Source: an uncultured archaeon (GTDB lineage: Archaea > Asgardarchaeota > Lokiarchaeia > Sigyniarchaeales > SOKP01). From it: a stretch of 64,000 nt of DNA. Below the pieces are notes generated by a model. That model made no database searches, was not told the origin of the DNA, and saw only the letters and a list, made by a program, of their open reading frames with translations. A program made the translations under genes and the position numbers. The DNA is taken from positions 35,513 to 99,512 of the forward strand of contig CAZDTP010000008.1 in assembly GCA_964508365.1 (NCBI GenBank), written 5' to 3'. Below are positions 47,818-59,746 of this stretch, piece after piece (the stretch's first letter is position 1; each line of letters begins with the position of its first letter).

Positions 47818-48222
47818 ATGAAAGGGTTAAAGAAAAGGAGAGTTTTTAAAACTTCTTTAGAGGAACTGTTAAAGGATATCATGGACAATGTCGAAGGAGT
47901 AAAAGCAGCTCAACTTTCGGCAGATACAGGTCAACCTCTTGCCTCAGTTCTACCATCCACTACGGATGATATGCGATTAGCTGCAATAACAGCTGCACTA
48001 TGTTCATTAAGCGAACGCGCAATTGGAGAAATGGGATTAGGGGAGTTTGAGCAATCCTATATTCAAGCTAAAAATGGATATCTTTTAGTGCTACACGCGG
48101 GAGAAGATCAAGTTTTAACCGTTTCTACTACTAAAGATGTTAAGCTTGCCCCAATTCTTTATAAACATTATAAAAATCTCGAAGACGGCGAGGAAATAGT
48201 AAGTAATACCCCAAATCTTTAA
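47818..48222 (+). CDS. Roadblock/LC7 domain protein
   Basis: VEGVKAAQL..DTGQPLAS, LAAITAAL.SLSERA..E and IQAKNGYLL. Confidence 0.88.
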   Translation: MKGLKKRRVFKTSLEELLKDIMDNVEGVKAAQLSADTGQPLASVLPSTTDDMRLAAITAALCSLSERAIGEMGLGEFEQSYIQAKNGYLLVLHAGEDQVLTVSTTKDVKLAPILYKHYKNLEDGEEIVSNTPNL

Positions 48223-48268: not shown

Positions 48269-49714
48269 TTATTTTACCTTTTTATCTTCGATATCGAGAC
48301 CTAATTCTTTTAAGCGATCTCGAATTAAATCGCTTATATCATAGAGATTCTTTTCTCTCAATTTGGTTCTCGTTTCAATAATTAAATTAATGAGATTTTT
48401 TATGAGGTTATCTTTCTCGTCGATGCCAACCGTTGAGAAAGGTAGCGTTTTTGATTTTAAAAAAGGAAAAATCCCGAAAATTTCCTCAATAAACTTGATA
48501 TAATTTAAGAATTGATCTTTGAACGATTCATTAATCTTTAACCCATCTTGTAATATAGCTTTATTTATTTCCCTAAATAGGGTTAATAGCTCAGCTAAAG
48601 CTACGGGAGTATCAAAATCATCGTCCATAGCTTCAATTATTTTACCTTTAGATTCCATAATTTTATTATTCAAAATAGTAAGCTTTTTAGACGGTTTTTC
48701 GCTAAACTCAGCATCGTTAACTTTCTTGATCGTATTAATTAAGCGGTTATATGTTTTCTTTGCTGGTTCCATGCTGTCAGGAGTGTAATTATTTGAACTT
48801 CGATAATGACTCGATATCAGATACCAGCGGATAACCATCGGATCGAAATCTTTTGCAATATCAGATACGGTAAAAAAATTATTTAGGCTTTTTGACATTT
48901 TTTCGTTGTTTACATTCACGTAACCATTATGTAAGAAATATTTAGCAAAAGGTTTTCCTGAATAAGATTCTGATTGGGCAATCTCGTTTCTATGATGAGG
49001 AAATCTTAGATCTTGCCCTCCTCCATGGATATCAATCGTTTCTCCTAAGTAATTTAGAATCATAACTGAACATTCGATGTGCCATCCAGGGCGTCCCTTA
49101 CCCCACGGACTTTCCCAATAAGGCTCTCCTTCTTTCATTTTCTTCCACAAAGCAAAATCACGCTTATCGAGCTTATCCTCGCCAAAAGCAGTATCTTGAT
49201 CGACTATATAATCCTTTTCTTCGCTTTCATTATTATGATCTTTTTTTCTTTGAAGTATTGAAGAATATTTGGGGAATGACTCAACCGAAAAATATACTGA
49301 TCCATTTCGTTCATAAGCGTGACCTTTTGAAATTAATTTTTGGGTGAATTTAATAATTAGATCAATTACTTCCGTTGCTCGAGGATTTCGAGTGTCTTTT
49401 TCAACATTCAACATCTCCATGATTTCTTTGTATTCGCTTATATAGCGATTGCTTATTGTTCTATAATCTTCATTGCTTTCTTGCGAGCTCTTGATAATTT
49501 TATCGTCTATATCAGTGTAATTTTTTACAATGTTTACTTCGTATCCTTTATACTTTAAATATCTATGAATTAAATCAAAAGCGACAGCAGACTTTACATG
49601 GCCTAGATGCGGACTTCCATAAACTGTAACTCCGCAAACGTACATCTTGACTTTTCCAGGCTCTAGTGGCACAAATTCTTCTTTTTGGAATGTTAGACTA
49701 TTGTATATTTTCAT
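48269..49714 (-). CDS. cysS: Cysteinyl-tRNA synthetase (class I)
   Basis: YVCGVTVY..PHLGH, GRPGWHIECS, DIHGGGQDL.FPHH and KMSKS. The true start is ATG 49714; the track ORF extends into the tRNA gene. Confidence 0.97.
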   Translation of the reverse strand: MKIYNSLTFQKEEFVPLEPGKVKMYVCGVTVYGSPHLGHVKSAVAFDLIHRYLKYKGYEVNIVKNYTDIDDKIIKSSQESNEDYRTISNRYISEYKEIMEMLNVEKDTRNPRATEVIDLIIKFTQKLISKGHAYERNGSVYFSVESFPKYSSILQRKKDHNNESEEKDYIVDQDTAFGEDKLDKRDFALWKKMKEGEPYWESPWGKGRPGWHIECSVMILNYLGETIDIHGGGQDLRFPHHRNEIAQSESYSGKPFAKYFLHNGYVNVNNEKMSKSLNNFFTVSDIAKDFDPMVIRWYLISSHYRSSNNYTPDSMEPAKKTYNRLINTIKKVNDAEFSEKPSKKLTILNNKIMESKGKIIEAMDDDFDTPVALAELLTLFREINKAILQDGLKINESFKDQFLNYIKFIEEIFGIFPFLKSKTLPFSTVGIDEKDNLIKNLINLIIETRTKLREKNLYDISDLIRDRLKELGLDIEDKKVK

Positions 49715-49759
49715 GATTGTTGATACACCCAAATTAAATGATTGAGAAGATGGTTTAAG

Positions 49760-49840
49760 AGCCAGTGGAGGGATTTGCACCCTCGATGCTGAAAGCAACG
49801 GCTCTGCAGGCCGCCTCCTTAACTACTCGGATACGCTGGC
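49760..49840 (-). tRNA. tRNA-Cys(GCA) with a long variable arm, 81 nt, no encoded CCA
   Basis: GCCAGCG/CACTGGC acceptor stem + U73; TCCG..AGGA D arm; GCGGC-CTGCAGA-GCCGT anticodon arm; TGCT-TTC-AGCA-TC variable arm; GAGGG-TGCAAAT-CCCTC T arm. Confidence 0.9.
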
Positions 49841-50016: not shown

Positions 50017-50529
50017 TTAATTAATACATTTTTCGCAACATTGATTATTTGAAGTTAAACCACAATCCTCGAAATTAAAATCAAATGGGAGGACAAAATC
50101 ATTTGTGACATCAGTTATAATATCCATAGAGACCTCTAATATGTTAGGATCTTTTCTAAAATGATGGTTTACAATCTCATCAAGATGCGCGAGTTTATTA
50201 CTTACTATTAGAATACTAAGATTCGAAGTACCGCTTAATCTAAATGCGTTGAGCATGTAAGGACAATTTTTCACTAATTTAACTATTTCATCTGGTTTTA
50301 ATGTCTGAATTTCAACTCTTGCTAAGAGTAAATCCATAGTTTTTACATTTATACCTGCTTGAAATTTTAGGACGCCTGATTTCTCAAGTTTACGAATTCT
50401 CATTCCAATTGTAGGCTGGCTTCGATTAACTTTCTTAGCGATCTCGGTATGGGTAAGCATTGGCTCTTTTTGGATTATCTCAATTATATTCTTGTCTATT
50501 TCATCGATTTTAAAGACTTCACTTTCCAT
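50017..50529 (-). CDS. Lrp/AsnC-family transcriptional regulator with a C-terminal Cys cluster
   Basis: DEIDKNII..IQ, HTH and RIRKLEKSGV, then a RAM domain and C..CCEKC tail. Confidence 0.9.
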   Translation of the reverse strand: MESEVFKIDEIDKNIIEIIQKEPMLTHTEIAKKVNRSQPTIGMRIRKLEKSGVLKFQAGINVKTMDLLLARVEIQTLKPDEIVKLVKNCPYMLNAFRLSGTSNLSILIVSNKLAHLDEIVNHHFRKDPNILEVSMDIITDVTNDFVLPFDFNFEDCGLTSNNQCCEKCIN

Positions 50530-50695: not shown

Positions 50696-51031
50696 ATGAG
50701 TGAATTTAAAAAAAATATCGTCGAGTTTTTAAAAGTATTAGCGGATCAAACTCGATTAGAGATACTAGATTTACTAAATCATGAGAAGAAAGTCTCTTCT
50801 GAAATTCAATCTGCCCTGAACAAATCGCAATCTACAATTTCTCAACATTTAAAGGTTTTAACTAGTAGGAACCTCATTATTTTTGAAAGAATTAATAATA
50901 TTAAGTATTATCAAATCAAGAATTTAGAGATCTTTAAACTCCTAGTAGAAATTAAGGATTTTGTTGCAAAAATAAATCAAGAAAAACTCAAAGATTTAAG
51001 AGATTTAGATGTTATTGATACATTATCATAA
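50696..51031 (+). CDS. ArsR/SmtB-family transcriptional regulator
   Basis: LKVLADQTRLEIL and SQSTISQHLKVL. Confidence 0.92.
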   Translation: MSEFKKNIVEFLKVLADQTRLEILDLLNHEKKVSSEIQSALNKSQSTISQHLKVLTSRNLIIFERINNIKYYQIKNLEIFKLLVEIKDFVAKINQEKLKDLRDLDVIDTLS

Positions 51032-51058
51032 TTTGGTTATTTTAAATCCCTTGATTAA

Positions 51059-51610
51059 ATGAATTCAACAATGACAGAAGACACATCTAATAACTCAAAA
51101 AAAGTATTGTTAATGGGTTTAGATAATTCCGGTAAAACATCTATCGTATTGTGTTTGAGGGGTGTGAAGAATTTATCGTCGTTTTCCTCGCTAAATCCCA
51201 CGAGAGGGGTCAGGATCAATAAATTCCAAGCTTTAGGCTCAGAATATAGCATTTGGGATTTTGGTGGCCAACAACAGTTCCGAAATGGCTATTTAAACGA
51301 CTTTCAAACACATATAAAAGGAACTAAGAAATTTATTTATGTCTTAGACATCCAGGATCGGGAGCGGTATGACATTTCATTAGAATACTTAAGTAAAATC
51401 CTAGCTCTCTTAAGGAAACATAAGATGACTATCGATTTTTCTATATTTTTACATAAATATGATCCCGATTTGGAATTCACATCTTCCAAATTTGATGAAA
51501 GCGTAATTTCTGATTTGATCAGAAATATTAAAAAATTAATTCCATACGATTTCGCGCACCAAATTTACAAAACATCAATTTATACTGTTTTTCAGAAATT
51601 AGCAATATAA
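51059..51610 (+). CDS. Small GTPase, Rag/Gtr- or Arf-like (eukaryotic signature protein)
   Basis: G1 GLDNSGKTS, G2 PT, G3 WDFGGQ, G4 HKYD and G5 TSIY. Confidence 0.9.
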   Translation: MNSTMTEDTSNNSKKVLLMGLDNSGKTSIVLCLRGVKNLSSFSSLNPTRGVRINKFQALGSEYSIWDFGGQQQFRNGYLNDFQTHIKGTKKFIYVLDIQDRERYDISLEYLSKILALLRKHKMTIDFSIFLHKYDPDLEFTSSKFDESVISDLIRNIKKLIPYDFAHQIYKTSIYTVFQKLAI

Positions 51611-51636
51611 AAAATAGGAAAAGGAAGTGAATTTGC

Positions 51637-53817
51637 TTGCTTAATAATGTAAATGATTCAAAAGCATCGATGTTTCAGCGTGATTTAATTGAATATATTA
51701 TTTTAGGAATAGGACTATTTCTTACATTTTTACTAAGCACTTATAGCTATTTACTTTTTCACTCTATCGCTGAAGTAATTAGCATAGTTATATCGGGGGG
51801 GATTTTTTTTATTGGCTGGAACTCACGAAAGTACATGAATAGCTCATTTTTTTTAATTATTGGGATTTCTTTTCTTTTTATTAGCCTAATAGATTTAATT
51901 CACACATTATCTTACTCTGGAATGAGCATTTTTCTAGAATTCGATGCGAATCTTCCAACACAATTGTGGATCGCTGCTAGATATTGGCAATCCATTTCTT
52001 ATTTTCTTGCTTTAATTGCGATAAAAAAGAAAATTAACGCAGGTTACCTAATGCTCAGTGGAGTAGTAATAATTTCGATTCTTTTAGCTACGATTTTTTA
52101 TCGTATATTTCCAACATGTTATATAGTAGGTATAGGGTTAACACCTTTCAAAATTATAAGTGAATATATAATTGATTTAATCCTTTTAGTTTCAATAATA
52201 TTATTGTGCAAATTTCGAAGCGAATTTAATAAGAAGATATTTCTTTTAGTTATAACATCCATTAGCACTACGATCATTTCTGAATTGGCATTTACATTCT
52301 ATGTGAGCGTATTTGACTTTTCAAATTTGATTGGTCATATTTTAAAAATAATTGCTTTTTTTTTCATATATAAGGCAATAATCGAAAAAGGTTTGCAGGA
52401 TCCCTTTGGATTGCTACTTAGGAAGTTAAAGTCGAGTGAAGAAAAATATAGAACTTTAGTCGAAGATTCACTAGAGGGTATATGGGCATTTGATGATAAA
52501 ACCAACACTACTTTTGTTAATCAAAGCATGGCAAACATATTCGGCTATGAGGTAGATGAGATGATGGGAAAAAATCTTTATCAATTCATAGAGGATGATA
52601 GTAAAAAAATCGCTAAAATAAATTTTGAACGAAGTAAGCTAGGGATAATAGAAGATCATGAGTTTGAATTTATCCACAAATCTGGAAGAGAGGTATTTGC
52701 AACTGTAAGAACTTCTCCAATATTCAATGAAAATGGAAATTTCAACGGTGCTATGGCGTTTGTAACTGATATTTCTGAGCAAAAAATTGCACGAGAAAAA
52801 ATAGCAGATATGGCAAGGTTTTATACTGAGAATCCTAATCCCGTGCTAAGATTAAGTAATAAATATGTCCTTTTAGCTAATAAGGTTAGCCAAACTTTAT
52901 TCAGAATAGGGGAAGGTAGTAGAATTCCTGATGTTATTACAAAATTTGTTGACGAAGCTTTTTCTATGGATAAGAATATTGAAATGGAATTAAAAATCAA
53001 GGATCGAATCTACAACCTATTCATTGTGCCGATTAAAGAAAAAGGGTATGCGAATATATATGGCATGGATATAACCGCTCGGAAAGAAGCTGAAGATAAC
53101 TTGGGTCGTTTTGTTTCTACGGTTTCTCACGAATTAAGAACACCAGTTAGCGTATTAATAATGTCAATTGAATTTTTAGAAAACCACTCTGATAAAATTA
53201 CTCCAGAAATCAATAAAAAATTGAGAGAAGGAATCTCAAGAAATATCTACCTCCTAAAAGACTTAATTGAAGATATTTTAACGCTTTCAAGAATTGATGA
53301 GGGGAAAGCTGAAATGGAATGGAACGAATATAAACCATCCCTAGTAATTAAAGATATTTTAAATTTGATGGAACTAATTGGCAACGAGAAAAATGTAACT
53401 TTTAAGGTAGATATTAGCGAAGAAATCAAATTATACGGAGACAATAAAAAAGTTGATCAAATATTTCGTATTTTTGTTGACAATGCTATAAAATATTCAA
53501 AGGAAAGAAATAATATAGAGATAAAAGCAATTGATCATTACAAAGGTGAATATAATGCTAATGAAAGGGACGGAGTATTATTCCAATTTAAAGATAGTGG
53601 TATAGGAATTTCGAAAAGCGATATCTCTTCTATTTTTGAAAGATTTTATAGGTCAGAACAAGTTACTGATATACCCGGAACGGGATTAGGATTATCTATT
53701 GCGAAAGAATTGATTATACTTCATTCTGGAGAAGTTTATGTTGAGAGCGAATATGGTAAAGGAACAACTTTTTACATTTTCCTTCCGAGAATTGAAAAAG
53801 AAATATATACTAACTAA
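51637..53817 (+). CDS. Membrane sensor histidine kinase (MASE3-like TM region, PAS, HisKA, HATPase)
   Basis: 7 TM, PAS (YRTLVE...TTFVN), SHELRTP, DNAIKY, DSGIGI and GTGLGL. Confidence 0.93.
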   Translation: MLNNVNDSKASMFQRDLIEYIILGIGLFLTFLLSTYSYLLFHSIAEVISIVISGGIFFIGWNSRKYMNSSFFLIIGISFLFISLIDLIHTLSYSGMSIFLEFDANLPTQLWIAARYWQSISYFLALIAIKKKINAGYLMLSGVVIISILLATIFYRIFPTCYIVGIGLTPFKIISEYIIDLILLVSIILLCKFRSEFNKKIFLLVITSISTTIISELAFTFYVSVFDFSNLIGHILKIIAFFFIYKAIIEKGLQDPFGLLLRKLKSSEEKYRTLVEDSLEGIWAFDDKTNTTFVNQSMANIFGYEVDEMMGKNLYQFIEDDSKKIAKINFERSKLGIIEDHEFEFIHKSGREVFATVRTSPIFNENGNFNGAMAFVTDISEQKIAREKIADMARFYTENPNPVLRLSNKYVLLANKVSQTLFRIGEGSRIPDVITKFVDEAFSMDKNIEMELKIKDRIYNLFIVPIKEKGYANIYGMDITARKEAEDNLGRFVSTVSHELRTPVSVLIMSIEFLENHSDKITPEINKKLREGISRNIYLLKDLIEDILTLSRIDEGKAEMEWNEYKPSLVIKDILNLMELIGNEKNVTFKVDISEEIKLYGDNKKVDQIFRIFVDNAIKYSKERNNIEIKAIDHYKGEYNANERDGVLFQFKDSGIGISKSDISSIFERFYRSEQVTDIPGTGLGLSIAKELIILHSGEVYVESEYGKGTTFYIFLPRIEKEIYTN

Positions 53818-53868
53818 CCCTAATTCTATTGTACTCGAAATTTAAAAAAAAATTCAGTTAGATTCCCC

Positions 53869-54765
53869 TTGAAACCTCTTATTCTTGTTGTTGAGGATAA
53901 CCTTGATTTATTGTATAATTTAAAAATATTATTAGAATCTAATAACTACAAACCCGTAACTGCGAGAAATGGAAAAGAAGCTATAGAAATTCTCTCTAAC
54001 CTTGAGGAAATTCCTGATGTTATTATTAGCGATATTATGATGCCTGAAATGGATGGGTATGAATTTTTTAAAATAATCTCAAACGAGCCGCGATGGAATA
54101 GAATTCCATTCGTATTTCTTTCAGCGCTCATTAATCCTAAAGATATAAGATATGGAAGGCTGCTTGGGGTGGATGATTATTTAACTAAGCCATTTGACGA
54201 GAGAGATTTACTCGCAATATTATCAGGTAGAATTGCTCGTAATAAAAGAATTAATGCATTAAACAAAAAAATTAACGAATCGTTTTCAACTACGAATTTA
54301 AAAATGAATATCCCGATTGAGGATCAAAGAGAACTTTTTATCCTTTTATTTTTAGCATTTTGGGATGATAAAACCGGTCCAGAATTAAATCAATATTTCC
54401 CTGAGGAAAAAAATTTTCCAATTCCCTTAGATGACATTGTAAATCAATTATTTACGGTAGCAACTTCAATTTATGGTCACGATAAGATTACAAAGGCTGA
54501 AGGGGTATTATTGGATATAAAAAATCTAAATAATCGTGGTTATCTCTTTTTTGATTCATATCCTGACAAAAAAGAAAGATTTGGAGAAAAACAATATATG
54601 ATTGCAGTTATCGCACCATCAATTAACTATTTTCACACATTAGAGATAAAAGAGATATTTATTGATTTATCTGAAAAAATAAAAAAAAAAACTAATTGGA
54701 ACATTGAAGAATATTGGAAGAAAATTTATGATATAATGTTAATAGATCCAATAAAAATTGAATAA
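53869..54765 (+). CDS. Response-regulator receiver fused to a longin/uDENN-like domain
   Basis: VVEDN, ISDIMMPEMDG and YLTKPF. The C-terminal LFLAFWDDKTGPELNQYFP pattern resembles the FD..GP....YP start of longin/uDENN domains. Confidence 0.75.
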   Translation: MKPLILVVEDNLDLLYNLKILLESNNYKPVTARNGKEAIEILSNLEEIPDVIISDIMMPEMDGYEFFKIISNEPRWNRIPFVFLSALINPKDIRYGRLLGVDDYLTKPFDERDLLAILSGRIARNKRINALNKKINESFSTTNLKMNIPIEDQRELFILLFLAFWDDKTGPELNQYFPEEKNFPIPLDDIVNQLFTVATSIYGHDKITKAEGVLLDIKNLNNRGYLFFDSYPDKKERFGEKQYMIAVIAPSINYFHTLEIKEIFIDLSEKIKKKTNWNIEEYWKKIYDIMLIDPIKIE

Positions 54766-54803: not shown

Positions 54804-55754
54804 CTAAAAACGAAATAAATCAGTAGAGAGATATTTTTCTCCACCATCAGGTAGTAAAGCTACAAGATTTTCTCCTTCTTCGAAATCTTTTGAAGCTTCA
54901 TAAATAGCAGCCCAAGCACACGCTCCTGCAGAAATTCCCACAAATATTCCTTCTAATTTAGCTAATTTTCTTGCTGTTGCGACGGCATCACTATAATCTA
55001 CAGTAATAATTTTATCGTATATTTCGGTGTTTAGCACTTCTGGTATAAATCCCGCACCTATACCTTGAATTTTATGTGGTCCAGGTTCTTCTCCTGATAA
55101 AATCGCAGACCCTTTAGGTTCCACAGCATAAACTTTAAACCTTGCTCCTACCCTATCTTTTAATATTTCACCTACACCAGTTATAGTTCCTCCTGTTCCA
55201 ATTCCAGCAATAAATCCTTCGACTTGACCATCTAAGTCGTTAAATATTTCTTTAGCTGTGGTTCTTCTGTGGATATCTGGATTAGCAAGATTCCTAAATT
55301 GTTGAGGGATATACACCTTTCCTCTCTCCTCTGCAATTTCTTCTGCTTTCGTTATAGAACCTTTCATACCTTCCTCTTTTGGCGTGAAAATGACTTCGGC
55401 GCCATAAGCTCGAAGAATTTGCGTTCTTTCAATAGTTACACTTTCAGGCATAGTAAGGATTAATTTATAGCCTTTTACAGCACATGTAATCGCAAGACCA
55501 ATCCCTGTATTTCCCGATGTGGGCTCAACGATTATAGTGTCGCTATCAATTATGCCTTCTTCTTCAGCTTTAAGGATCATGTTCATACCAATTCTGTCTT
55601 TAACGCTACCACCAGGATTAAAAGATTCTAACTTAACAAATATATTCGGTTTAACATCACTAGTAATTCGATTAAGCTTTACTAATGGAGTCTTTCCTAT
55701 TGTTTCTAAAATACTATTATAATAATTAGCCATAATTTTTTCCTCTTTATTCAT
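54804..55754 (-). CDS. cysK: Cysteine synthase (O-acetylserine sulfhydrylase)
   Basis: NPGGSVKDR (PLP Lys), EPTSGNTGIGLA, GTGGT and HKIQGIG. Confidence 0.96.
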   Translation of the reverse strand: MNKEEKIMANYYNSILETIGKTPLVKLNRITSDVKPNIFVKLESFNPGGSVKDRIGMNMILKAEEEGIIDSDTIIVEPTSGNTGIGLAITCAVKGYKLILTMPESVTIERTQILRAYGAEVIFTPKEEGMKGSITKAEEIAEERGKVYIPQQFRNLANPDIHRRTTAKEIFNDLDGQVEGFIAGIGTGGTITGVGEILKDRVGARFKVYAVEPKGSAILSGEEPGPHKIQGIGAGFIPEVLNTEIYDKIITVDYSDAVATARKLAKLEGIFVGISAGACAWAAIYEASKDFEEGENLVALLPDGGEKYLSTDLFRF

Positions 55755-55775
55755 TTTAAAAAAAAATCGTCAAGC

Positions 55776-56615
55776 TCAAATTCCTTCACCATATTCTCCG
55801 TAAAAGATTTCAATATTGTCATCTTTGGATTTATTTGTGTCTGGGAAATGTTCTTCTAATTCTTTAATTCGCTTATCTAAATGTGCTATGGCAATTGAAA
55901 TTGGATCTGGTAGATCACCGTGCCGTAAATCTATTTTTTCTATTTTTTCTCCCTTTTTAGAAACGATTTTCGCAGGTACACCAACAACAACACAATGTGG
56001 AGGAACATCGTTAACAACAACAGAGTTAGCACCAACTCTAACATTATCACCGATAGTGATAGGTCCTAAGATTTTTGCACCAGTACCAACAACTACGTTA
56101 TCACCTAATGTCGGGTGTCTCTTTATTTGTTCTAAATTAGTACCTCCTAAGACTACTCCAGAGTAAAATGTTACATTATTGCCAATTTCAGCAGTTTCGC
56201 CTATTACAACTCCTGCTCCGTGATCAATAAAAAATTCAGAACCAATTTCGGCACCAGGATGAATATCAATTGCTGTCAACTCTCTAGCAATATCCGAAAT
56301 ATATCTTGGAATATACGGAACATTCAATTTCCAAAAAAAGTGAGCAATACGATATATCAATACAGCTTTTATACCGGGATAACTCGTTAACACTTCAATC
56401 AAAGTACATGCAGCGGGATCTTTATTAAATGCTGCGTTTACATCAGATACAAAGAAATCTAAAATACCTTGCAGATATTTTTGAATGAATTCATAATTTA
56501 TATCTTCTATATTAAATTCTAGTTTCAAAAGGCATTCTGTGCATTGTCCATTGCTATTCTTAGATTTTGAACCTAATCTCTTACCACATGACAAACAACT
56601 TAAAAATTCATCCAT
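55776..56615 (-). CDS. cysE: Serine O-acetyltransferase with an N-terminal Cys-rich extension
   Basis: DPAA, IDIHPGA, FIDHGAGVVIGET and RHPTLG. The N-terminus has C..C...C..C. Confidence 0.95.
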   Translation of the reverse strand: MDEFLSCLSCGKRLGSKSKNSNGQCTECLLKLEFNIEDINYEFIQKYLQGILDFFVSDVNAAFNKDPAACTLIEVLTSYPGIKAVLIYRIAHFFWKLNVPYIPRYISDIARELTAIDIHPGAEIGSEFFIDHGAGVVIGETAEIGNNVTFYSGVVLGGTNLEQIKRHPTLGDNVVVGTGAKILGPITIGDNVRVGANSVVVNDVPPHCVVVGVPAKIVSKKGEKIEKIDLRHGDLPDPISIAIAHLDKRIKELEEHFPDTNKSKDDNIEIFYGEYGEGI

Positions 56616-56881: not shown

Positions 56882-59746
56882 ATGATTTCTGACGACAATA
56901 AACAAGATAACATCAAAACTCAATTTCAAATTTTTATGGAAATTGTTAACGATCTGGTTATCGTCATTAATCAAAATAAAAATTTCGACATAGAACTCAT
57001 TAATCAATGCCCTTTATTAGATAAACTTGGATATTTTGAAATTGACCTAACAGGGATGCCTTTTTTAACAATTTTTTTTTCTGATGATGTCAAAAAAATC
57101 GCTAAATTTTTAAAAAAGGGTGTTGAAACTTTTGGTCATTTCCAAGAAATAAGGCTACTGTCAAAGAAGGGCGAAATTATTTGGGCAGAAATTAAAGCAA
57201 AAAAATTTACTGATGAGAATAAGAACAATAAGATTTTAGTAATTCTGAAAGATATTTCAAAGCAGAAAAAAATAGAAGTTAATCTGAAAGTTACTGAAGA
57301 ACGCTTTAAAAAAATAACTGAAACCATCCCTGAAATACGATTTTGGAAATTGTTCAATCCTAAAAAATACGAAGAAGCCCTCCAAAGTTCATACGAAATG
57401 CTCCAAATGGTTATGGCGAATATACCACAATATATCATCTGGAAAGATATTGATTTAAGTTATTTAGGGTGTAACGATAATTATGCAAATTTAATAGGAA
57501 TTGAACACCCTGAAAATATTATTGATAAAAAGGACGAAGAATTACTATGGGACAGCAATCAGATTAAGTATAATAGACAAAAAGAGAATAAAGTTATAGA
57601 ATCAAATCAAGCGGTTTTTCATTCAGATGAATATTGGACTCGTAGAGATGGACAAAAGACTTGGATCGATGTTAATAGAATACCGTTGCTTAACTCCGAT
57701 GGTAAAGTCGCAGGACTCTTAATTACATTTGAAGATATAACAGAACGAAAAAATGCTGAAGAGAACTTACGTCGTCAACATGACAAGCTAGAACGAATTA
57801 TGGAGACTAATCCCGCAGGGATAATGTCTGTAAACACAGAGGGGCATATCATTTACGTTAATTCTCAAGCAGAAAAAGTCATGCGCTTCACAAAAGAAGA
57901 ACTATTAAAAAAATCCTTTATAGCATCAAAGTTCAAACTTTTAGACTTAGAAGGCAATCCCATACCAAAAGACGAGCTTCCTTTTCAAATTATAATGCAA
58001 ACGAAAAAGCCATTATTTGACTATCACGCAACCTTTAACTTAGCTAAGGATAAGAATATTCTACTTTCAATTAATGGTACACCTCTTATTGGAAGCAACG
58101 GGAACATAGAAAATATAATTTTTACCGTAGATGACATAACAGAAAAAGTTTTAACGGAGCAAAAAATTAAGGATTCAGAGGAAAAACTCAGGGATTTATT
58201 AGAGACTTCGACAATTGGTATTTTGGAAATTGAGTTAGTTAACAATAGTATCTCTTACATTAACCCTAAATTGTTAGAATTCATTGGTTATCAAGATATC
58301 AATATTGTGAATAAAAAGTTAATGGATGAAATTATCCATCCCGACGACCTGAAAAGATTATTAAATTCTGAAGAAGGAAAGGAGATAGAGTTTAGAATTT
58401 TTACCAATGAAGGCAAGATGAAGTGGTTACAAGGTAAAAGATTAAACCAACACGACGAAAAAGGCAATTTAATAAGTTTTCGATTATGGTTAGAGGATGT
58501 AACCGAAAAGAAGATTTATGAAGAATTAATTTATGAACTGAATATAAACTTTTTAAACTACACGACGGATACTCAACAAAACATAGAATTATTACTCAAA
58601 ACTTGCCTTAAATTACTTAATTGCGATGTTGTTTTGTATATCAATAAAAGTATTTATGAAGAAAAAGAACAATACAGAGTAATGTCTGATAGAGGGGATG
58701 TTAGATTATATAGCTCAGAAGAGTTCAAAAATAATTTATTTGTAAGTCAAGTGTTTTTAGAAAACCACGATTTCACTCAAGAATTTTATGATATCGATAA
58801 GTCACAATATAGGAAAATTGATAGATACATAATCAATAATAATATAAAAGCGTGTTACGGAAAATTAATTTTATCTGAAAATGATTTAAATGATTTGTTA
58901 TGCGTTTTGTTTAAGGAAAATCCAAAGATTACTAACCAAAATAAATTAGTACTTTTCTTAATTTGCGATGCTTTGGAAATAGAACAGAGAAGGTGGCGAT
59001 CCCAACAACATTTAGAAGAACAAAACAGGATGCTAAGCGAAATAAATAAGTTAAAAAGTGATCTCTTCTCAAGAACATCTCATGAATTAAAAACACCTTT
59101 AATTTCCATTAAAGGATTCACTGAATTATTACTGAGACTACATTCAGAAAAGTTAGACGATGATGTTATCTCAATTATAGAAGAAATTAAGAGCGGAAGC
59201 AAACGACTTGAGAATTACATTAATTCACTTGTGGAAAGTTCGCAGCTAGATCAAGGTTTAATGAAACTGCATAAAGTAAAAGATAACCTTACCTTTCTAA
59301 TTAAATACTGTGTTAAACAACTGCAAGCAATTGCTGATTTAAGAGAACAAGTTATTAGTGTGAATGTTAAGGACAATCTATTTACGGAATTCGATAAAGA
59401 AAAAATATACGAAGTGATTACGAATTTATTGATAAATGCTATAAAATACACTCCTGTGGGTGGCCAAATCATAATCGAATCTAATAAAGAAGACAGCCAC
59501 TACATAATTTCGATAAAGGATACGGGTATTGGATTAACTCAAAAAGAAATTACACAACTATTTACGCAATTTGGTAAAATAGAAAGATATGGACAAGGCT
59601 GGGATGTAGGAATCGAAGGTACTGGATTAGGATTGTACATCTCAAAAGAATTAATGAAGCTTCACAATGGTAAAATTTGGGTTGAATCCGAAGGTAGAAA
59701 TAAAGGAAGTACTTTTTTCTTTTCATTACCTATTATAAAAAACTAA
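56882..59746 (+). CDS. Cytoplasmic multi-PAS (+GAF-like) histidine kinase
   Basis: Four PAS-like repeats, SHELKTP, NLLINAIKY, DTGIG and GTGLGL. Confidence 0.92.
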   Translation: MISDDNKQDNIKTQFQIFMEIVNDLVIVINQNKNFDIELINQCPLLDKLGYFEIDLTGMPFLTIFFSDDVKKIAKFLKKGVETFGHFQEIRLLSKKGEIIWAEIKAKKFTDENKNNKILVILKDISKQKKIEVNLKVTEERFKKITETIPEIRFWKLFNPKKYEEALQSSYEMLQMVMANIPQYIIWKDIDLSYLGCNDNYANLIGIEHPENIIDKKDEELLWDSNQIKYNRQKENKVIESNQAVFHSDEYWTRRDGQKTWIDVNRIPLLNSDGKVAGLLITFEDITERKNAEENLRRQHDKLERIMETNPAGIMSVNTEGHIIYVNSQAEKVMRFTKEELLKKSFIASKFKLLDLEGNPIPKDELPFQIIMQTKKPLFDYHATFNLAKDKNILLSINGTPLIGSNGNIENIIFTVDDITEKVLTEQKIKDSEEKLRDLLETSTIGILEIELVNNSISYINPKLLEFIGYQDINIVNKKLMDEIIHPDDLKRLLNSEEGKEIEFRIFTNEGKMKWLQGKRLNQHDEKGNLISFRLWLEDVTEKKIYEELIYELNINFLNYTTDTQQNIELLLKTCLKLLNCDVVLYINKSIYEEKEQYRVMSDRGDVRLYSSEEFKNNLFVSQVFLENHDFTQEFYDIDKSQYRKIDRYIINNNIKACYGKLILSENDLNDLLCVLFKENPKITNQNKLVLFLICDALEIEQRRWRSQQHLEEQNRMLSEINKLKSDLFSRTSHELKTPLISIKGFTELLLRLHSEKLDDDVISIIEEIKSGSKRLENYINSLVESSQLDQGLMKLHKVKDNLTFLIKYCVKQLQAIADLREQVISVNVKDNLFTEFDKEKIYEVITNLLINAIKYTPVGGQIIIESNKEDSHYIISIKDTGIGLTQKEITQLFTQFGKIERYGQGWDVGIEGTGLGLYISKELMKLHNGKIWVESEGRNKGSTFFFSLPIIKN

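Follow-up and report, generated by a model that had tools for sequence, protein, structure and literature searches.

A conserved Lokiarchaeial gene cassette encoding a receiver-longin response regulator and a Rag-like GTPase, a candidate phosphorylation-gated GAP and its target

We analyzed a 64,000-nucleotide stretch of DNA (here called the window) from an uncultured archaeon of the Lokiarchaeia (Sigyniarchaeales, SOKP01; GenBank assembly GCA_964508365.1, contig CAZDTP010000008.1, positions 35,513 to 99,512 of the forward strand), which contains a cassette of four genes encoding, in this order, an ArsR-family regulator, a Rag-like small GTPase, a membrane histidine kinase, and a response regulator. 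Structural models indicate that the C-terminal half of the response regulator is a longin domain. The arrangement of the cassette exceeds chance, as the same four-gene order recurs across Promethearchaeota metagenome-assembled genomes (MAGs). Most likely, although we hold this at about even confidence, the regulator is a phosphorylation-gated GTPase-activating protein (GAP) acting on the neighboring GTPase; we infer the binding, the GAP direction, the dimer mechanism, and the control by phosphorylation. The cassette, the divergent gene beside it, and the domains of the regulator are as follows.

50017..50529, minus strand: AsnC/Lrp-type regulator carrying a Cys cluster (C..CCxKC) at its C terminus (Pfam HTH_24, 5.6e-13; HTH_AsnC, 2e-10)
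50696..51031, plus strand: winged-helix regulator of the ArsR/SmtB family, encoded by the first cassette gene (Pfam HTH_5, 3e-12; NCBIfam HTH_metalloreg, 9e-18)
51059..51610, plus strand: small Rag/Gtr-like GTPase of 183 amino acids (aa) that consists of a G domain only (Pfam Gtr1_RagA, 1.1e-20; Arf, 1.1e-18)
51637..53817, plus strand: membrane sensor histidine kinase, MASE3-PAS-HisKA-HATPase_c (Pfam; NCBIfam MASE3_PAS_HK, 2e-106)
53869..54228, plus strand: receiver domain of the response regulator, residues 1-120 (Pfam Response_reg, 6e-23)
54343..54741, plus strand: predicted longin domain of the response regulator, residues 159-291 (AlphaFold2, VIA, Foldseek, motif conservation)

The four open reading frames (ORFs; 50696-51031, 51059-51610, 51637-53817, and 53869-54765) all lie on the plus strand, encode proteins of 111, 183, 726, and 298 aa, and are separated by 27, 26, and 51 nucleotides (nt), in exact agreement with a first-pass annotation that had described four co-oriented genes with these gaps. 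GC content is low in the window (~30%), and the three internal gaps of the cassette contain no runs of five or more T residues, a weak check in a genome of ~30% GC.

The receiver-longin regulator

The receiver domain of the regulator matches Response_reg over residues 5 to 118 (81.6 bits, against a cutoff of 30.2) and was modeled by AlphaFold2 (AF2) with predicted local distance difference test (pLDDT) values of 95 to 98 and a VIA Z score of 19.5 to receiver domains. Residues E9-D10, D55, S85, Y104, and K107 are present, and D10, D55, Y104, and K107 are nearly invariant among 68 homologues, which bears out the earlier observation that the phospho-acceptor Asp (D55; codon at 54031-54033) and the Lys (K107) are intact. 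In the AF2 model, helix alpha5 of the receiver runs on as a long stalk (helix 111-141).

The remainder of the protein (residues ~140 to 298) matched no family in Pfam or NCBIfam. Among 1.84 billion cluster representatives searched, 168 families contain the domain, mostly as receiver fusions of ~295 aa. The AF2 model of the full-length regulator (68 full-length homologues; pLDDT, 86.3; predicted template modeling score, 0.80) contains strands at residues 159-166 and 170-177, a helix at 187-202, three further strands, and helices at 254-272 and 279-291, and the protein terminates 7 residues past the longin domain, with no domain after it. The topology is thus beta-beta-alpha-beta-beta-beta-alpha-alpha, with no N-terminal helix (DSSP of the models), and because this is the element order of longins, we assign the fold to longin rather than roadblock.

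VIA results obtained with the full-length model were filled by receiver domains, and therefore the C-terminal domain was modeled separately (pLDDT, 89.3; 109 sequences). The top 30 VIA matches of this model were longin and roadblock proteins exclusively. The best match was 8yqg_B (Z = 13.2 over 133 residues), a longin that is part of a Lokiarchaeal Roadblock-Longin protein; other matches included the Kluyveromyces lactis Lst4 longin (Z = 12.8) and chains of the FLCN-FNIP2 (Z = 11.2 and 10.0), C9orf72-SMCR8 (Z = 11.2 and 10.7), and GATOR1/SEAC (Z = 10.3 and 9.9) complexes. TRAPP (9.8), DENND1A (9.5), and roadblock proteins (~8) scored lower, the longins of TRAPP, DENND1A, and Mon1-Ccz1 spanning 8.7 to 9.8. 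The leading Foldseek matches (6ulg_N, 8yqg_B, and 4zy8) belong to the same families, and a nearby cluster in the ESM Atlas, 19% of whose members carry NPR2 (score, 0.75), provided a lead. The AF2 models, VIA, and Foldseek therefore all agree with the longin-type C-terminal domain proposed in the first-pass annotation, which had also described the start of this domain correctly (F164-W-D-D-K-T-G-P-E-L...Y176-F-P178).

Conserved motifs suggest which kind of longin this may be. W165-D166 (54361-54366) and G170-P171 (54376-54381) have the same WDxxxGP spacing as W33-D34...G38-P39 in human C9orf72; W165 is nearly invariant among homologues, and the GP pair, which opens strand 2 (residues 170-177; DSSP), is >90% conserved. 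In longins of known GAPs, the GP motif marks the beginning of strand 2 or the loop preceding it, an arginine finger is present in FLCN, NPRL2, and SMCR8, and the WD motif is that of C9orf72 (W33-D34), while the GP motif is missing from the longins of DENND, TRAPP, FNIP2, and NPRL3 (PMC12290439). R237 (54577-54579) in the strand 4-5 loop of the regulator is present in 28/28 orthologues and in most family members, and nearly all GTPase-linked copies have a conserved Arg in this loop. We consider R237 a candidate arginine finger, with FLCN R164, NPRL2 R78, and SMCR8 R147 as the reference residues.

Because of the structural matches and the combined WD, GP, and Arg set, the domain, labeled uDENN-like in the first-pass annotation, is better read as the same kind of longin as those of FLCN, NPRL2, SMCR8, and C9orf72, which would point to a GAP. 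The DENND affinity was not borne out, as no core DENN or dDENN domain follows, the GP motif is present, and DENND1A (Z = 9.5) falls below the FLCN-type matches. The wider proposal of a GEF/GAP platform (GEF, guanine nucleotide exchange factor) held as to the longin class, and the generic platform is narrowed by the WD, GP, and Arg motifs, which point to a GAP. We do not file the regulator as an FLCN or NPRL2 orthologue, because a receiver precedes its longin domain and neither a DENN domain nor an NPRL2 C-terminal domain follows.

If the longin domain were instead a GEF or exchange platform comparable to DENN, Mon1-Ccz1, or TRAPP, phosphorylation would turn the GTPase on. This is unlikely in our estimation, even though the majority of longin and roadblock platforms are GEFs (PMC10933270), the TRAPP, DENND1A, and Mon1-Ccz1 longins were matched too (Z = 8.7 to 9.8), and neither gene linkage nor gene fusion can separate a GAP from a GEF. 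The top matches are GAP-type longins (Z = 10 to 13), and both the GP motif and the Arg were reported as confined to longins of GAPs, those of DENND and TRAPP lacking them (PMC12290439). The Arg is strongly conserved in the present family.

The Rag-like GTPase and its linkage to the regulator

The presumed client of a GAP-type regulator is the GTPase encoded two genes upstream. Its Pfam scores are 74.5 bits for Gtr1_RagA (cutoff, 22) and 67.8 bits for Arf, and its nucleotide-binding motifs (G20LDNSGKT27, T48, W66DFGGQ71, H132KYD135, and T172SI174) are shared by 38 homologues, both orthologous and paralogous; the HKxD and TSI motifs that had been singled out as typical of Rag/Gtr proteins are accordingly present (H132KYD and T172SI) and conserved. 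Among solved structures, its best-scoring relatives are 8yl2_A (1.5e-27) and 8zla_A/9m28 (9e-22); the title of the latter names a Rag-like GTPase of Lokiarchaeota ("LokiRagM"). With Rag/Gtr proteins and these solved Lokiarchaeal GTPases, the cassette GTPase shares HKxD, TSI, WDxGGQ, and the Gtr1_RagA match. However, 8yl2 (342 aa) and 8zla/9m28 (385 aa) carry a C-terminal roadblock domain, the defining, dimerizing feature of Rag/Gtr proteins, whereas the cassette GTPase (183 aa) does not; the kinase gene begins 26 nt past its stop codon, and all 38 homologues (150 to 200 aa) likewise consist of a G domain only. We therefore call the protein Rag-like and not a Rag. It retains Q71 and has no obvious P-loop arginine of its own.

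To describe the distribution of the system, we used 33 loci from a scan in which each species was represented by a single genome and 40 regions from a survey of the phylum (loci are numbered with the prefix L). The longin domain was found in 89 of the 300 Asgard genomes surveyed, mainly in members of two families (59/68 and 21/21 genomes). Every orthologous locus with enough flanking sequence has the order AsnC (opposite strand), ArsR, GTPase, MASE3 kinase, and regulator, and the four-gene order persists down to 45 to 53% GTPase identity and 51 to 58% regulator identity; the conservation of gene order anticipated by the first-pass annotation was thus found in the synteny survey. The closest public copy of the cassette (L002, DATKTW010000054.1) has a regulator 94% identical to that of the window and a kinase split into ORFs of 272 and 523 aa; its label, "Candidatus Nanopelagicaceae bacterium" (actinobacterial), probably reflects a misbinned or mislabeled Asgard contig.

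Beyond the orthologous loci, the regulator is found beside GTPases in other arrangements. In a group of paralogues, the regulator is followed after 20 to 35 nt by another Gtr1/RagA-like, G-domain-only GTPase, and some loci have the order ArsR-GTPase-regulator with no kinase in between. In a distant Asgard family, the regulators, which are sometimes tandem pairs, adjoin a Gtr1/RagA-like protein of 456 to 462 aa, a kinase, and a Ras-like GTPase. Moreover, the longin domain is fused directly to G domains, as Ras::longin (P0142) and Arf::longin (P0260), and an Arf::longin::PAS::HATPase fusion forms a single protein of 1,129 aa.

Several further architectures were seen among relatives of the regulator. 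Giant chains of 840 to 1130 aa (L049:3862-7251, minus strand; L052:5114-7648; L053:4290-7193; and P0260) combine an Arf-like G domain, a longin, PAS, and a histidine kinase ATPase domain. Proteins of 600 to 690 aa at L045-L048, L050, and L051 begin with a GP-type longin followed by TPR repeats and are often in tandem or next to a protein of similar size; one member of such a pair may be Arg-less (L050), and these pairs recall the catalytic and noncatalytic pairs of eukaryotic longin GAP complexes. In the distant Asgard family, tandem receiver-longin genes, both copies of which retain WD, GP, and Arg, lie between two kinases (L037:5552-7423 and L063:1168-3042) and may act as heterodimers. Upstream of the paralogous regulator-GTPase pair, a winged-helix and TPR protein of ~640 aa is conserved (L030:4104-6017 and L033:3313-6351), and the start-to-stop ORF at L033 (1,012 aa) has an additional N-terminal part resembling a 4Fe-4S ferredoxin.

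A GTPase gene within three genes of the regulator was scored as a neighbor, with counts made on clusters at 60% identity. By this measure, 15 of the 18 informative Arg-bearing receiver-longin clusters have a GTPase neighbor, compared with one of the four Arg-less clusters, and the chance expectation, derived from the genome that contains the window (65 GTPase ORFs in 4.07 Mb), is ~10%. On a tree of 73 domains, GTPase neighborhood changes three times and the Arg changes five times. The link between the Arg and the GTPase neighbor is suggestive.

Other observations weigh against a GAP acting on the neighboring GTPase. The three independent contrasts available are too few for a sign test to reach significance, so that an association between losing the Arg and losing the GTPase neighbor is not established; since linkage among relatives is largely inherited, the independent linkage events are few as well (three changes on the tree). 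Arg-bearing copies at L041, L068, and L073 have no GTPase nearby. At the sequence level, a profile of 22 domain sequences had no match among PDB sequences at E values of ≤10, and Pfam gave only faint matches to Afi1 (0.076) and Folliculin (0.14), each for a single homologue. More generally, longin platforms are mostly GEFs or scaffolds and not GAPs.

It is also conceivable that regulator and GTPase make no direct contact, the longin domain binding another partner or a small ligand, as the related PAS and GAF folds do, and the GTPase acting at some other point of the pathway, such as the kinase or ArsR. The tie between the two proteins is purely one of genomic context, family members at L042, L067, and L073 have only a kinase as a neighbor, and the Foldseek matches include, toward the bottom of the list, PAS and LOV domains (E values of 0.03 to 0.05). 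We nevertheless find an absence of contact rather improbable, given the direct fusions of longins to Ras- and Arf-like G domains, an adjacency that outlasts several changes in gene order, and a set of top 30 structural matches composed entirely of GTPase platforms.

Kinase, transcription regulators, and flanking genes

The phosphorylation-gated GAP that we favor has a potential source of phosphate within the cassette. The kinase contains MASE3 (residues 34-256; E = 3.8e-79), PAS (269-383), HisKA (489-556), and HATPase_c (601-718) domains (Pfam), and in a genome-wide count it was the sole MASE3 protein detected. Its gene stops 51 nt upstream of the response regulator gene, and a kinase adjoins the regulator in most loci of the family. 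A second kinase of 954 aa is encoded in the window at 56882-59746 (plus strand), 3' of cysK and cysE, and is kept in closer relatives; Pfam matched four PAS domains in it but no membrane domain. Because it has no response regulator of its own nearby, this kinase could feed the cassette receiver.

The ArsR protein contains no cysteine and is therefore not an obvious metal sensor. Its gene lies 5' of the GTPase gene in all loci ordered GTPase-kinase-regulator or GTPase-regulator, and it is probably either the transcription regulator of the cassette itself or an output of the cassette. Directly upstream, the AsnC gene (50017-50529, minus strand) diverges from the cassette, and this neighbor is kept in nearly all orthologous loci with flanking sequence (counterparts in L002-L028), including the conserved Cys tail (C..CCxKC). 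Some loci have two or three AsnC paralogues with a related CGxxC tail. The AsnC protein with its Cys cluster may be a redox- or metal-sensing variant of Lrp.

Two other features of the neighborhood were considered as parts of the system and set aside. A roadblock gene (Robl_LC7, 9e-16), noted in the first-pass annotation, is indeed present at 47818-48222, 2.5 kb upstream of the cassette, and encodes a stand-alone MglB-like protein, one of six in the genome. Its membership in the cassette was not upheld: a cysS gene on the opposite strand, a tRNA-Cys gene, and the AsnC gene intervene, and it is syntenic in close relatives only. The cassette is also flanked by cysteine-related genes, with cysS and tRNA-Cys upstream (48269-49840) and cysK-cysE downstream (54804-56615). 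This cysteine theme is kept in close relatives only and is not conserved in more distant orthologous loci.

Proposed switch and relation to known systems

Taken as a phosphorylation-gated GAP, the regulator would complete a His-Asp phosphorelay whose output falls on a small GTPase rather than on DNA. The membrane kinase would detect a signal through its MASE3-PAS region and phosphorylate D55 of the receiver, which the long helical stalk would couple to the FLCN/NPRL2/SMCR8/C9orf72-kind longin. Phosphorylation would most likely alter the dimer state of the regulator, such that two longins form or re-register a paired-longin cradle of the sort employed by eukaryotic longin GAPs. This cradle would bind the Rag-like GTPase, with W165-D166 and G170-P171 keeping the GTPase in position and R237 inserted as the arginine finger, and the stimulated hydrolysis of GTP would switch the GTPase off. 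In the structure of C9orf72-SMCR8 with ARF1, one longin grips the GTPase through its WD face and the other contributes the Arg (PMC8213707). A homodimer would suit the cassette regulator, because the WD face and the Arg are both present in one chain.

Close parallels are found among eukaryotic longin GAPs, namely, FLCN-FNIP2 (Lst7-Lst4) for RagC/D, GATOR1 NPRL2-NPRL3 for RagA/B, and C9orf72-SMCR8 for Arf (PMC8213707, PMC12290439). The regulator resembles them in fold (Z = 10 to 12.8), in the WDxxxGP/GP motif and the conserved Arg, and in the likely Rag- or Arf-like client. However, the eukaryotic proteins have a DENN or NPRL2 C-terminal domain and form heterodimers, whereas the regulator has neither domain and is probably homodimeric and receiver controlled, and there is no significant sequence similarity between them. 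GP and Arg motifs have also been noted in FLCN/SMCR8-type longins of Asgard archaea, together with the question of which GTPase family they partner (Traffic 2025, PMC12290439). Those examples are mainly stand-alone longins of heimdallarchaeia, whereas the window protein is a Loki-type receiver fusion whose context points to Rag-like GTPases consisting of a G domain only.

A comparable circuit exists in Myxococcus, where the small GTPase MglA is under a protein of the roadblock/longin superfamily, the roadblock GAP MglB, and the partner RomR-RomX brings a receiver into the circuit. There, however, receiver and platform are not joined in one protein, the GTPase belongs to the MglA type, and RomR has no known cognate kinase in its operon, whereas the window regulator has an adjoining kinase. 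This system suggests another role for the receiver-longin, that of a noncatalytic effector or scaffold that recognizes one nucleotide state of the GTPase and localizes or assembles other proteins. RomRX, a receiver-containing complex, was reassigned from GEF to effector of MglA-GTP (PMC13408092), and the persistence of Arg-less paralogues means that noncatalytic roles do occur in the longin family. For the window copy, we judge such a role to have a low probability, since this copy and all orthologues retain WD, GP, and Arg, and the Arg-less copies mostly lack a GTPase neighbor.

In Asgard archaea, fusions of NPRL2-like longins to two-component domains have already been published (Liu et al. 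2020/2021, bioRxiv 10.1101/2020.10.19.343400, Fig. 5c), and growth control of Asgard archaea through such systems was proposed in the same work. These fusions, of a receiver or kinase with an NPRL2/FLCN-like longin, and the idea of two-component systems driving eukaryote-like regulators are both shared with the present case, and the novelty that the first-pass annotation gave to a hybrid bacterial-eukaryotic circuit was thus overstated. In the part of the preprint consulted, no conserved operon that includes a Rag-like GTPase is mentioned, and most such genes are placed outside conserved neighborhoods, whereas for the window cassette, synteny and fusions fix which GTPase is the partner. In a 2024 structural survey, the small-GTPase genes of MK-D1, a cultured Asgard archaeon, were generally outside operons with longin or roadblock regulators, so that pairs could not be predicted (PMC10933270). 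Our literature search found no publication describing a conserved cassette with a Rag-like GTPase. The regulator is not a new kind of protein; the value of the cassette is a concrete, testable pair of regulator and target.

In eukaryotes, growth control involves Rag GTPases and longin-domain GAPs (GATOR1 and folliculin), and Arf is under the related C9orf72-SMCR8. We speculate, with considerable doubt, that the cassette may be a present-day prokaryotic precursor of the Rag-GATOR1/FLCN nutrient switch, representing an ancestral state before duplication into the eukaryotic heterodimers, in which a signal-gated longin GAP would act on a Rag-like GTPase and a His-Asp phosphorelay, perhaps together with the adjacent Lrp/AsnC-type regulator, would stand in place of the eukaryotic amino acid sensors. 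The cassette supplies one fixed GTPase-regulator pair of small proteins (183 and 298 aa), plus an upstream kinase. This pair bears on three questions: whether the GAP chemistry of longins is older than eukaryotes, whether its first clients may have been Rag-like G domains, and how a receiver would gate it.

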